From assembly GCA_963771465.1 (NCBI GenBank), contig CAVYTU010000009.1:160001-224000 (forward strand): a DNA stretch of 64,000 bases, written 5' to 3'. The translations under genes were made by a program, and so were the position numbers. The stretch is from an uncultured delta proteobacterium (lineage in GTDB: Bacteria; Desulfobacterota; Binatia; UBA9968). Positions 16,631 through 20,613 of the stretch are shown piece after piece (position 1 is the stretch's first letter; each line of letters begins with the position of its first letter). Below the pieces are notes generated by a model. That model saw only the letters and a program-made list of their open reading frames with translations. It was not told where the DNA came from and made no database searches.

Positions 16631-17433
16631 ATGCTGCTCGGCTACCTTGATCTTATGATTTCCGAATTAATAAACGATCTTAAGGCGCACACAAACAATT
16701 ATATTGATTGTAATCCGATCTTTACACGTCTTTCTTCCGGCGACATCACACTGTTTCACTACCTCGCCTACCTAAGAGAAAACGTATCACCTCGTAAAGC
16801 ATACGCCTAAATACTTGATGGTCGCCGCTAATCGAGTAGCGGAAAGCGATCAACGACTGTCCGCCTATTTTAGAAAATTTTCTTTTAGAAGAAACCGGAC
16901 AGTTGCTATGCATCAGGGACATTAATGCACTTGGAGAAAACGCGGAGCTTATCATATCTGGCGATCCCAACGCCGGAGCATGGGGAATAGTAACTCAATG
17001 TTATTTTTGGGCCGCCCAAGGCAATCCGGTCGCGCTCCTAGGCGATGCCTTCGCGACCGAAGAGCTTGGCGTCGCAAGGGGCATCGAAGTAGCGAGCCTT
17101 CTTGTGGCGAACTATGGTATTTCGCGTAAAGCAACCAATTTTTTGCGGGTTCATGGGAACGAAGACAATCAGCATCTGGAAGCGGCGGCCGGAGTAATCG
17201 AGTGGTACGCAGCAGATCGTAATCACTACGCTGACATAGATTATGCTACGAGAATGACATACCGATACTACGGCCAGTTATTCACGGATGTTTTGGAACT
17301 GGGCGACAGTTGGAGGCGGAGTTACTACGCAGCTGTCTTTCGCAGTATCGCCCAGGCGATCACGTGGCGCGACGCTACGAGCGTACCAATTCTCGCGGAA
17401 CAGGCAGAAAACCAAACTTCGAGTATTCAGTAA
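16631..17433 (+). pseudogene. degenerate heme-oxygenase-like (iron-containing redox enzyme) gene
   Basis: Reconstructs as ...YLAYLRE/TYHLVKHTPKYL...FRKFS/LEETGQLLC...FLRVHGNEDNQH across two frameshifts. The His expected after EExG is missing, and the region is AT-richer than its flanks. Confidence 0.6.
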
Positions 17434-17671
17434 GGTTATGTAAACGATACCCTTAGATTTGAGAATGCGCTGGATCTCGCGGAAAGTTTTCTTTCGGTTG
17501 AAGCAGATGTTCGACAACACTGCTCTTCCATCACGCCGTAGGTACGTCGAATCCTAGACCGCGACTTGCATTACGCCGATGCGCTCGGCTCGACGCCCTA
17601 AATATCCCTACCCCGTTGCTTGGCACAATCTGCCATGGACATTCGCTTAACCTTGCGGTAGGTGGTTGATC

Positions 17672-18424
17672 ATGAAAACGGATGAATTTATCGAGGAACT
17701 TTGGGGCTACGCCGCTGAAGTACCGATGGAACAGCATCCATGGTTCGACGGCATCATCAAGCACCGCTGGAGCAAGGAGCAGATCATTCTCGGCGAAGTG
17801 CAGCATTATTTGCGCGTGCGCACCAATCCGATCTTCTTTGGCCATATGGCGATCAACGCGGTGTCGGCGAAGGAATATGCGGTCATGGCAACGGTGTTGG
17901 AAAACTTCATGGAAGAGCTCGGCGGCAAGCGCACGCACGTCGATATCATGCTGCAATTTCTCGAAGAAGGCGGCATCACCCGCAAGGAAGCGGATAACGC
18001 CGAGCCCGCGCCAGGAACTTTAGCCGCCATCGAAATGATCATCGGCTGTTGCCAGCGCCGCTCCGCCCTCGAAGGCGTCGCCATGCTCGCCTTCGTCGAA
18101 AGCCAACTCGGTGGCGAGGGAAAGATTTCGGAAAAAGTTTATCGCGAGCTTACCGGATACTACGGATTCACAGCGCGCGCCGCGGCAACCTACCAACTGC
18201 ACGCTGCCCAAGACGAAGGACACGGCAGCCGGCAAATCGATGCAATACGAATGCTCGCCACCGATACAACAAGCCAAAACAAGATTCGCGCCGCGGTAAA
18301 ACTTGGCCTGACGGCATTCACGTTAGAATGGGACGGTCATGTTCAGGCGATGACGGGGAAGCGGGAATTTTGGGGTGGCGTGGCCGATTTGAAACTACGT
18401 CAACCTAAAGTGAAACTGGCATAA
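17672..18424 (+). CDS. heme-oxygenase-like diiron protein (PqqC/CADD/TenA superfamily)
   Basis: HPWF, ENFMEELGGKRTH, E...LHAAQDEGH ligand pattern. Confidence 0.85.
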   Translation: MKTDEFIEELWGYAAEVPMEQHPWFDGIIKHRWSKEQIILGEVQHYLRVRTNPIFFGHMAINAVSAKEYAVMATVLENFMEELGGKRTHVDIMLQFLEEGGITRKEADNAEPAPGTLAAIEMIIGCCQRRSALEGVAMLAFVESQLGGEGKISEKVYRELTGYYGFTARAAATYQLHAAQDEGHGSRQIDAIRMLATDTTSQNKIRAAVKLGLTAFTLEWDGHVQAMTGKREFWGGVADLKLRQPKVKLA

Positions 18425-18483
18425 AGACCGGAAGTCTCTGATCTCGCTGCTAAATCTTGAGCGGTGGAAACTCGAAAACTCTC

Positions 18484-18705
18484 TCAGATCGGCCACTCCT
18501 TCGGCAAATCTTTTCTAAGCGTCTTGTACTCCGGGTCGTTGCTGTGCTTAGCGCGCAAGCGCTTGAGCGCCGCGACGACTTCCTTCTGCTCTTTCTTCAC
18601 TGCGTTGGAGACCATACCCGTGGTCTCTTCGAAGCCGACGCCTCAATTGTTGTGTCAGCCGCGCATGCGTTTGAGAATGTAGAGATCGTCTTCCTTGGTT
18701 GCCAT
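18484..18705 (-). CDS. putative 73-aa selenoprotein with two Sec residues (UxxxU motif), family unknown
   Basis: Reads MATKEDDLYILKRMRG-U-HNN-U-GVGFEETTGMVSNAVKKEQKEVVAALKRLRAKHSNDPEYKTLRKDLPKEWPI*. TGA at 18657-18655 and 18645-18643. Coding-like codon usage, start 11 nt after the upstream stop, and a SECIS-like hairpin downstream. Confidence 0.75.
18602..18641 (-). promoter_or_regulatory. candidate SECIS element
   Basis: Perfect 7-bp stem GAGACCA/TGGTCTC with loop CGGGTA (18627-18608) and a lower stem GCGT/ACGC. The loop starts at +23 from the second UGA. Confidence 0.7.
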
Positions 18706-18716
18706 GCGAGATTCTT

Positions 18717-19136
18717 TCAACTCGAAATGCCGGAAAAACCTACTTTTTGGTTCGTAATTAATTCGGTCGCGGTCTCCGGCTCACCATCCGTCTTTACAGT
18801 CACGCGAATGCGAACGAAAATCCGCCAAGCGTCACCACGCCATTGGCAGTGAAAAATGACAAAAGCATTTTCAGTCACCGGTCCTGCCGGCTCCGCACAA
18901 TGCACGAGACTCTGGAACTGTTCGCTGCCGCCGCCCGACAATTCGAGCGGCGGCGTGAAACGTACCTCATCTGATTTGAATTGCCCATGGGGTAAGCGTG
19001 CGGAAAGAATATTCACTGTATCGCTGCCAAAATTTTCGACTTCCCAGCGAATATTCCAACCATTCGTCGCCGCATCGCGTGCTACCAAAAGCTGACGCAA
19101 GACGATTTTCGGTTCCGCTGGCGAAAGCGCCGCCAC
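18717..19136 (-). CDS. hypothetical protein (beta-rich)
   Basis: 139-aa ORF packed between the SBP stop and the di-UGA gene; LPHGQF and ENAF segments. Confidence 0.75.
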   Translation of the reverse strand: MAALSPAEPKIVLRQLLVARDAATNGWNIRWEVENFGSDTVNILSARLPHGQFKSDEVRFTPPLELSGGGSEQFQSLVHCAEPAGPVTENAFVIFHCQWRGDAWRIFVRIRVTVKTDGEPETATELITNQKVGFSGISS

Positions 19137-19139
19137 AGT

Positions 19140-20155
19140 TTACTTCAGCCTGCCTTCTGCGCGCAGTTCCTGCTGTGCGATCTTGAGAATCCGATCGTTG
19201 ACGACTCGATCGAGGGTAAAGTTCTTGTCCACCAGTCCGGCGCGAATATCTTCGTCGAGCATCTGCTGGAGTCCACCGGTTACGATCGACAGATCAGCCG
19301 TGAGACCCGGAGCATACAGATCGTAAGCCGCGTTGACGATATCCGTTTCGCCGCTGAGACCTGACTCGTAGCCCGCTTTGATCGCCTCGCGCTTGTTGAA
19401 TTTGGCCAACTGCATCCCTTGGATGTAAGCTTTGAGCACTCGTTTGCTCATCTCCGGAAATTTTTCCAAAACTTCGTTGCGCGTGACGATAATATTTTGC
19501 GGAATGCCCAGCGACTCGCTTAGATTACTGATCAGGGAATAACCGGCTTTGATGAGCCGAACGCCATCCTCCGGTGAGAACGGCGCCGCGGCGATTATCC
19601 CTTCTCGATGGCCGCCGCGCGCAATACGGTGCCGCCGATCGCTCGCAGCGTGACATCCTTGTCTGGGTTGATATTGTGTTTCTTGAGGAAAGCCTTCATG
19701 GCGAATTCTGAGTAGGTTCCGGCGCCGGTCACGCCGATCATCTTGCCTCTGAGGTCTTCCACCGTGCGCGTCTGCTTGTTGCCGAGCAAAATGTAATTGG
19801 TCGTGCTCGAAGTGCAACCGACTATCGATAAATCCAATCCCCGAGATCGGCTGCGAAAAACCGCCTGCGCGCCGCCGATGGCGGCGAAATCAACTTCTCC
19901 GGAAACCAGAGCGGCGATTGCCGCGGGCCCGCCGCGAATCAGGATCGGCTCGACGCTCAGCCCCTGCTGTTTGAAAAATCCACGCGCCAGCGCGACGCGA
20001 AAAGGAATCTCGCTATTCCAAGCGAGGCTGACGAATACCATGCGAACGTTCTTCTTTTCCTGCGCCAGGGGGAGTGTAGCGCTCAAGAGCACGGCAAGAA
20101 GGCAAATCCCGAATTGCGATAATCTTCGAATACCCATCACGCCAGTCCTCTTCAC
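19140..20155 (-). CDS. NMT1/SsuA-like ABC substrate-binding protein; one frameshift near 19600
   Basis: Signal peptide, GFFKQQGL, AALVSGEVDF and DLRGKMIGV. Joins as IEKG/IIAAAPFSP if one G is added to a G run. Confidence 0.85.
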
Positions 20156-20613
20156 CGTTTCGCGTACACCGTCATCTTGCCGTTCTTATCGAAGGTGAAA
20201 ACCGTATACGGCTCCGGCTTGCCGCCTTCCATGCCCGGCGAGCCCACCGGCATGCCTGGCACGGCGAGGCCGAGCACCGGCGGTTTCTCTTTTAACAATT
20301 TGTCGATCAAGTCCGCCGGCACGTGACCTTCTATGACGTAGCCGTCGATCACAGCGGTATGACAGGAACGCAGTTTCTCAGGGACATTGTGCTTAATTTT
20401 TACATCAACAAGCTTGCTGCTCATCACGTTCTTCTTGTCGACTTTGAATCCATTCGCTTGTAGGTGCCCGACCCACCCAGTGCAGCAGCCTCAGCCGGGG
20501 TCTTGATAGACGGTGATTGATTTGGCGGCGGGTTTAGTTTGAGCTTCCAGCCGTACTGCGACGAATGCGAAGCAGATTAAAAACCAAATGATGGCAAATT
20601 GGCGATGTCGCAT
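20152..20613 (-). CDS. secreted DUF411-family metal-binding protein with in-frame UGA (putative selenoprotein, UGCC)
   Basis: GAGGAG RBS, ATG at 20613 and a signal peptide. VYQDPG-U-GCCTGWVGHL matches the family xCGCCxxW motif. Continues into SCHTA, GYVIEGHVPA and GLAVPGMPVGSPGME. TGA at 20493-20491. Confidence 0.88.
20460..20476 (-). promoter_or_regulatory. candidate SECIS element
   Basis: Stem GTGGGT/ACCTAC (one G-U pair) with loop CGGGC, starting at +21 from the UGA. Confidence 0.6.

Follow-up and report, generated by a model that had tools for sequence, protein, structure and literature searches.

The described systems closest to the one reported here are predicted bacterial selenoprotein families with two closely spaced selenocysteine (Sec, U) residues. 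Table 1 of a review of prokaryotic selenoproteomes published in 2026 gives the Sec motifs of 119 families (PMC13188914), among which the nearest double-Sec entries are a UxxU metal-binding family (NF041115), a UxxU FmdB-family protein (TIGR02605), TsoB with UxxxxU (NF045694) and MbdU (NF045648) (PMC13188914). In the model given in the same review, the bacterial selenocysteine insertion sequence (SECIS) is a hairpin with a loop of 3–9 nt, a stem of 4–16 bp, a G in the first two loop positions, a spacing of 16–37 nt between UGA and loop and a minimum free energy of at most −7.5 kcal/mol (PMC13188914, Fig. 2 legend). Here we describe a small gene in a 64,000-nucleotide stretch of DNA (the window) from an uncultured delta proteobacterium of the Binatia (contig CAVYTU010000009.1 of assembly GCA_963771465.1, positions 160,001 to 224,000). 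The gene is very probably real and, as predicted from its sequence and that of its relatives, encodes a di-selenocysteine protein of 73 amino acids with the spacing UxxxU.

The predicted protein resembles the four tabulated double-Sec families in several respects: two near-spaced Sec residues are predicted from a conserved pair of TGA codons, cysteine (Cys) homologs exist, the candidate SECIS lies within the coding sequence and a metal-binding or redox role has been proposed. Unlike them, it is a free-standing protein of 73 amino acids with its own partner of 139 amino acids, and it shows no sequence kinship to any of the four. Most of these families have NCBIfam models and were covered by our scan, in which the models for known double-Sec and small selenoproteins (NF041115, TIGR02605, NF045694, NF045648, UXX-star and others) gave no score above cut-off. 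The spacing UxxxU is found in none of the 119 families of Table 1 (PMC13188914).

An earlier note on this stretch, made from the letters alone, had recognized no family for the protein, and our searches agree. Pfam returned 0 families for the small protein and only chance-level matches for its Cys forms (E ≥ 0.014). When the TGA codons were translated as Cys, the sole NCBIfam match was PolA at E = 0.072, and the Cys homologs gave nothing significant. A profile search of the PDB with the small protein produced chance-level matches only, and a protein atlas search with the Cys homolog P0140 gave no usable match. Full-text literature searches, which did not extend to supplementary tables, found nothing joining Binatia with selenocysteine or a selenoprotein with UxxxU, and the accessible parts of the deep-Sep and BSepDB papers mention neither this lineage nor this motif. 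The gene very probably represents a new, previously unnamed selenoprotein family within a well-known type of recoding, although supplementary survey tables could already list it.

A reading frame with two in-frame UGA codons

Read on the minus strand, positions 18705 to 18484 give MATKEDDLYILKRMRG*HNN*GVGFEETTGMVSNAVKKEQKEVVAALKRLRAKHSNDPEYKTLRKDLPKEWPI*, in which each asterisk is a TGA. The coding sequence extends from an ATG at 18705–18703 to the terminal TGA at 18486–18484, as supported by an ungapped alignment of 40 loci and by the selection analysis below. The first in-frame UGA, codon 17, lies at 18655–18657 and the second, codon 21, at 18643–18645, both on the minus strand. The two predicted Sec residues, Sec17 and Sec21, are four residues apart in the site motif G-U-x-x-N-U-G. 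The earlier note described this frame accurately, including its start 11 nt past the TGA stop of the upstream open reading frame (ORF; 18717–19136); a convergent gene (17666–18424) ends 59 nt beyond the small-gene stop. The codon usage that it had called host-like on both sides of the TGAs was also borne out, with a G+C content at third codon positions of 0.69 over codons 1–16 and 0.81 over codons 22–73, compared with 0.54 and 0.36 in the two alternative frames of that strand. The table-11 ORF list at the locus holds a 43-amino-acid ORF starting at M31 and antisense ORFs, and nothing else; the protein is missed in annotation because gene finders halt at its two UGA codons.

Two DNA runs, each from a different study, gave contigs that cover the gene with both TGAs unchanged; in the part of the gene before the TGAs, the single difference listed is synonymous and falls at a third codon position. 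A contig from an RNA library (18300–18666) also includes both TGAs, unchanged, and a second RNA-library contig (18691–18841) spans the ATG and the boundary to the gene upstream. For both contigs this means presence in the library, with no implication for transcription, strand or transcript ends.

Conservation of the UGA pair

A six-frame search recovered full-length homologs, each with exactly two TGAs, in 48 of 61 related genomes; they span three families of the order and range in identity from 97% down to 42%. Forty loci align without gaps, namely our own and those of 39 relatives, among which one genome is flagged as unpublished. All have TGA at both codons, accounting for 80 of 80 internal stops, and their terminal stops are a mixture of TGA, TAA and TAG. 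Such a pattern goes far past what chance would produce. About 16 codons before the TGAs there is an ATG or GTG start codon, which is often preceded by a ribosome-binding site of the GGAG type. DNA scans for further relatives returned at least 459 stretches from metagenome contigs and at least 216 from species genomes, and 160 loci were kept. These read TGA/TGA in 157 cases, TGC/TGA in one (L211) and TGT/TGT in one (L191), and the remaining locus is cut by a contig end; TGG was found at neither codon among the 160 loci inspected as DNA. The species-genome loci partly repeat genomes of the 61-relative search, so the two sets are not independent.

In a class-wide sample, 14 of 151 genomes have the small-protein family. 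The three taxonomic families of this order contribute carriers in 6 of 8, 5 of 8 and 1 of 2 genomes, and one other taxonomic family contributes 1 of 18. None of 300 other genomes sampled over the phylum has it. In the phylum of a Chloroflexota-labelled carrier it occurs in 9 of 251 sampled genomes, always as TGA/TGA. The Sec form is patchy and yet present across two phyla, and Cys forms extend to archaea; the family is very probably widespread in soil bacteria.

The frame is under purifying selection at the protein level upstream and downstream of the UGAs, and equally strongly on both sides. Nei–Gojobori counts within the genus (20 loci) gave proportions of synonymous (pS) and non-synonymous (pN) differences of 0.68 and 0.14 for codons 2–16, before the TGAs (pN/pS 0.20), and of 0.61 and 0.14 for codons 34–73, after them (pN/pS 0.23). 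The three codons between the TGAs also vary as codons do (HNN, HSN, RRN, YGN, NKN), with N20 invariant in the protein and encoded by both AAU and AAC. A leader peptide followed by a separate 43-amino-acid gene does not account for this selection and codon-like variation across the TGAs.

Cysteine homologs

A profile search over 1.84 billion representatives yielded 121 matches at E ≤ 0.001, mostly stubs of 43 amino acids. We fetched the 23 non-stub matches. The 22 that align across the site all have Cys at both positions (…GMGN-C-Y-x-x-C-H-x-D-F-E-E-T…), and the 23rd, P0142, has an unrelated N terminus. Records of the Cys homologs are labelled Chloroflexota, Heimdall-, Hod- and Marsarchaeota, and Sulfolobaceae, and all are annotated ‘hypothetical’. 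C17, C21, F25, T28, M31, R64, P68 and P72 are invariant over the Sec and Cys forms, the C terminus LPxxWP-x is exactly conserved and Tyr60 is nearly invariant. Judged from these alignments, the locus is the Sec/Sec form of an unnamed CxxxC protein family of about 71 amino acids. A further candidate homolog, P0203 (1,148 amino acids), is a Cys-free repeat protein and was rejected as a spurious match.

The protein of the mixed locus L211 is the same as that of L232, from the second phylum, except at the TGC codon. L211 lies on a 2.9-kb contig of a differently labelled metagenome-assembled genome (MAG), and the protein identity to L232 indicates that this contig is probably mis-binned and carries a strain-level Sec-to-Cys variant. 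The earlier note had proposed that conserved TGA/TGA, mixed TGA/TGY and CxxxC homologs be sought, along with selection on both sides of the TGAs, the genes selA, selB, selC and selD in the genome and support for the TGAs in reads; all of these were found.

Two conserved hairpins and the candidate SECIS

Hairpin 2 (GAGACCA-CGGGUA-UGGUCUC; 18608–18627, minus strand) has a 7-bp stem and a free energy of −9.2 kcal/mol, and only 1 of 200 shuffles is as stable. The distance to its loop is 22 nt from UGA2 and 34 nt from UGA1, for which reason we read it as the SECIS for both, and its values fall within every range of the SECIS model for UGA1 and UGA2 alike. In the same genome, the distance from UGA to loop is about 21 nt for the fdhA hairpin and about 36 nt for the best selD hairpin, which makes the two spacings plausible in this organism. 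Action of the candidate SECIS, whose signature is unusually clear, on both UGAs is strongly indicated.

Each position of hairpin 2 pairs in at least 141 of 142 distinct sequences (99.9% of cells paired). Neither the four-fold degenerate third positions in its stem (ACC, GTC) nor the CGGG that opens the loop ever changes, and variation is free at a GGN codon in the distal loop and at a TCN codon just past the stem. The commonest change, A to G in the closing pair, turns A–U into G–U, which keeps the pairing and replaces Thr by Ala. Over codons 22–33, pS falls to 0.075, about one eighth of that in the remaining gene. The element keeps the same nucleotide sequence in the second phylum, with a protein identity there of only about one half. 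Summed contig depth peaks at 18606–18639 in two soil DNA runs (39.8 and 29.2 compared with about 6 in the flanks), as would be expected if an ultra-conserved hairpin recruits contigs from many relatives.

The earlier note had seen a single 7-bp hairpin with a loop that begins with CGGG. That hairpin is confirmed at 18627–18608; a second conserved one, at 18646–18629, had been overlooked. This is hairpin 1 (UUGAGGC-GUCG-GCUUCGA; 18629–18646, minus strand), which contains UGA2 in its 5′ arm and has a free energy of −7.5 kcal/mol (2 of 200 shuffles as stable), with 95.6% of cells paired in 120 distinct sequences. Its loop is mostly CUCG and lies 15 nt from UGA1; as loop G and spacing depart from the SECIS model in most sequences, we treat it as accessory. 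In a formal count, 97.7% of hairpin cells were paired, compared with 28–55% when partners were slid.

Like the canonical bacterial SECIS of the fdhF type, hairpin 2 lies inside the coding sequence just past a UGA, with a 7-bp stem, a 6-nt loop and a G at loop position 2 followed by another G. Unlike it, one hairpin here seemingly serves two UGAs that are 12 nt apart, a second conserved hairpin contains UGA2 and the element is identical across two phyla.

The Cys/Cys gene of L191 keeps hairpin 2 almost intact (L191:3046–3108; one G–C pair changed to G–U, −8.0 kcal/mol), and neither selA nor selB was found in the genome of this locus. Such a fossil-like SECIS suggests a recent conversion from Sec to Cys. 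Three Chloroflexota-labelled genomes with TGA/TGA forms have both selA and selB.

Selenocysteine machinery and decoding of UGA

The genome that contains the window (G000, 6.9 Mb) has a selA–selB–selD cluster on contig 14, with all three genes above curated cut-offs, and a tRNA-Sec (selC) that scores 76.7 bits and is also found by ARAGORN. Its selD itself has an in-frame TGA, as does fdhA. Among the 44 tRNAs listed by ARAGORN, the UCA anticodon belongs solely to tRNA-Sec, and tRNA-Trp has CCA. Long open frames end in TGA in 669 cases, in TAA in 548 and in TAG in 471. With this tRNA set, and with TGA as the commonest stop, UGA is an ordinary stop in this genome except at Sec. The co-occurrence of the gene with selA among the relatives does not discriminate, because 56 of the 61 genomes have selA. 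Further matches with one in-frame TGA each (G000:C16:85180–86043, L224, a second formate-dehydrogenase-like gene; G000:C14:13177–14205, L009, and G065:C46:17352–18524, both translation-GTPase-like) may be additional selenoprotein genes or breaks.

A three-gene module with a di-metal oxidase

The upstream ORF (18717–19136, minus strand) encodes an orphan partner protein of 139 amino acids that is predicted to be co-transcribed with the small gene and has an invariant His50 and Cys80. It stands directly upstream on the same strand in 182 of the 183 loci with enough flanking sequence, Cys forms included. In the sole flanked locus without an adjoining partner, L056 (G051:C3), a homolog of the partner is found in the genome at a distance of about 3.5 kb. 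More than 690 homologs of the partner were found, all of them unnamed; it has no match in Pfam, NCBIfam or the PDB, and the protein atlas gives unnamed clusters only. Partner matches in two other genomes fall into two overlapping pieces (G020:C18:52005–52413 and G028:C49:21979–22382, the latter with stops), and the gene may be frameshifted there.

The convergent gene (17666–18424, plus strand) encodes a haem-oxygenase-like di-metal oxidase (PF14518, 60.7 bits) and is present in 141 of the 156 loci with enough flanking sequence. The phyletic profile over the 61 relatives shows all three genes in 47 genomes and none in 10, with 4 discordant. Several of the 10 genomes without the module are nearly complete, in 1–10 contigs, and the 4 discordant ones are fragmented assemblies, three of which have a match at a contig end. 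These counts include two genomes flagged as unpublished and come from relatives that are not independent, with losses scattered over several genera. The three-gene module had gone unnoticed in the earlier note.

The oxidase is closest to Chlamydia CADD (1RCW; E = 2.4 × 10−12 over residues 20–202), which is the closest known relative of the module enzyme and not of the small protein. CADD, a di-metal oxidase, cleaves its own Tyr27 to produce p-aminobenzoate, and a Y27F change is reported to abolish p-aminobenzoate formation (PMC9522330). The oxidase shares its haem-oxygenase-like di-metal fold with CADD, the self-sacrificing 4-aminobenzoate synthase (1RCW, 8VA9; PMC9522330, PMC11965152, PMC13108848). 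At the position of Tyr27, module enzymes have Phe (143 of 143), and TIGR04305 gives 58.4 bits compared with a cut-off of 200; the enzyme is thus CADD-like and cannot work in CADD's way. The literature searched holds no Sec-containing or 139-amino-acid partner of CADD and no relevant link between heme oxygenase-like proteins and selenocysteine. An ORF of about 455 amino acids upstream of the pair seemed conserved at first and was rejected, as its identity depends on the lineage (glutamine-synthetase-like, methyltransferase, major facilitator superfamily or luciferase-like).

Neighbouring genes

A gene for an NMT1/THI5-like substrate-binding protein (19140–20155, minus strand) shifts frame near 19600 and is seen as two overlapping ORFs. 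Its relatives have a single intact ORF of about 333 amino acids, and the frameshift is private to this assembly, the product of either gene decay to a pseudogene or an erroneous indel. A second Haem_oxygenas_2 (PF14518) gene (16631–17433, plus strand), dissimilar to the module enzyme, is split over two frames at about 16810–16900, which makes a second apparent frameshift within 3 kb. A DUF411 (PF04214) gene lies at 20152–20427 (minus strand); its homologs stand upstream of the module in 37 of 200 loci, a weak hint of metal at most. A promoter and terminator scan gave no informative signal.

Alternative explanations

The explanation that we favour, with considerable confidence, is a 73-amino-acid di-Sec protein in which both UGAs are decoded and which would partner the 139-amino-acid protein and serve the oxidase. 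It is very improbable that the TGAs are instead true stops, separating a 16-codon upstream ORF from a 43-amino-acid gene that starts at M31, or marking a decayed gene, with the hairpins acting as a translational regulator that, for example, sequesters the M31 AUG. Gene finders do call only the 43-amino-acid ORF, stubs of this length dominate the databases, the M31 AUG sits in the loop and 3′ arm of hairpin 2, and the hairpins lack covariation. However, codons 18–30, which lie between the TGAs and M31, are conserved as protein, with N20 encoded by AAU and AAC, and stop-free homologs are collinear over the full length with Cys at both sites, in all 22 that span the site and in L191. The internal stops are exclusively TGA (80 of 80) while the terminal stops vary, and a pseudogene would not keep this pattern at 42% identity over two phyla. 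Slighter still is the chance that the UGAs are read as something other than Sec, as Trp or another residue by near-cognate read-through or through a local change of code. In its favour, one database record, P0002, has W at both positions. Against it, the UCA anticodon is confined to tRNA-Sec, tRNA-Trp has CCA, TGA ends more long frames than either TAA or TAG, and the small gene's own terminal stop in the window is itself a TGA; no TGG was seen in 160 DNA loci, and stop-free homologs have Cys, never Trp.

A third possibility accepts the di-Sec protein and makes it a redox-sensing, helix-turn-helix-like DNA-binding regulator with UxxxU/CxxxC as the switch. The Cys homologs do have a sub-threshold resemblance to a Sta1-family regulator (E = 0.053) and to sigma-factor models (E = 0.002–0.04), the PDB search matched CapW at E = 0.26, and the protein is small and, by eye from the alignment, of helical character. 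All such matches are far below curated cut-offs, however; adjacency to the 139-amino-acid partner (182 of 183) and co-loss with the oxidase fit a complex better, and the conserved C-terminal LPxxWP-x suggests a docking tail. We consider the regulator improbable, if less so than either reading without selenocysteine.

Several observations weigh against the favoured explanation. No pair in either hairpin shows compensatory double-sided changes, so that the RNA structure rests on frozen synonymous sites and stability and not on covariation. Part of the hairpin conservation could come from the invariant peptide FEETTGMVS, and no Rfam family matches hairpin 2, at the locus with E up to 10 or anywhere in the window at the gathering threshold. 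Of the 48 carriers, three, in genomes 60–92% complete, show no selA, and neither selA nor selB was found in the MAG holding L211. One more of the 61 genomes has only a partial copy (L180, G021:C559:7510–7665), which the contig edge truncates at the second TGA and which a TAG interrupts in frame at codon 51, through either decay or a sequencing error. No oxidase gene lies within 3 kb of the Cys/Cys locus L191, and the functional part of the proposal is inferred solely from synteny, co-occurrence and invariant residues. Finally, P0002, a 73-amino-acid JGI database translation from a 1,130-bp contig, has Trp at both sites. This bears on the non-Cys homologs that the earlier note had named as evidence against its proposal: at the DNA level none with TGG was seen, and the Trp pair is in P0002, known as a translation only. 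Its nearest DNA relative among the matches listed, L062, is 93% identical and TGA/TGA, and with a P0002 query that included the pattern MRGWRSNW the best 80 DNA relatives of at least 459 are all TGA/TGA, the DNA of P0002 itself not being one of these 80. The Trp residues would most simply reflect the choice of a table-4 model (TGA as Trp) by a metagenome gene finder on a short contig.

Proposed function and implications

In the mechanism that we propose, both in-frame UGAs, at codons 17 and 21, would be decoded as selenocysteine, with hairpin 2 as the SECIS for both and hairpin 1 in an accessory role. The two selenols would form a redox-active or metal-binding centre, probably in a Gly-rich loop between two helices; the Gly residues around the site (G16, G22 and G24) suggest a loop and not the helix face proposed earlier. 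The small protein may dock on the 139-amino-acid protein, with its invariant His and Cys, and act as its subunit or partner, and the pair would serve the CADD-like oxidase, most simply as an electron or metal relay, a role suggested by the joint gain and loss of the three genes. A more specific version, which we regard as rather unlikely, makes the di-Sec protein and its partner dedicated accessory subunits of a CADD-like oxidase that lacks the self-sacrificial tyrosine. Either a diselenol/selenolate centre would re-reduce or metallate the di-metal site, or the small protein, through its Tyr60, would supply in trans the residue that CADD sacrifices in cis.

The locus adds a selenoprotein family with UxxxU spacing, found in soil lineages that are abundant but uncultured. 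The selenoproteins of these lineages are undercounted, because the gene is annotated as a 43-amino-acid stub or is absent wherever examined. With two UGAs 12 nt apart, one SECIS in range and a hairpin over UGA2, the gene offers a compact natural test of SelB at consecutive Sec codons. Through the module, two orphan proteins are linked to a di-metal oxidase of the haem-oxygenase-like class, for which no physiological partners are described in the literature examined. If the accessory-subunit reading is true, a single-turnover type of enzyme would become catalytic, and the small protein would be the first known selenoprotein partner for this enzyme superfamily.

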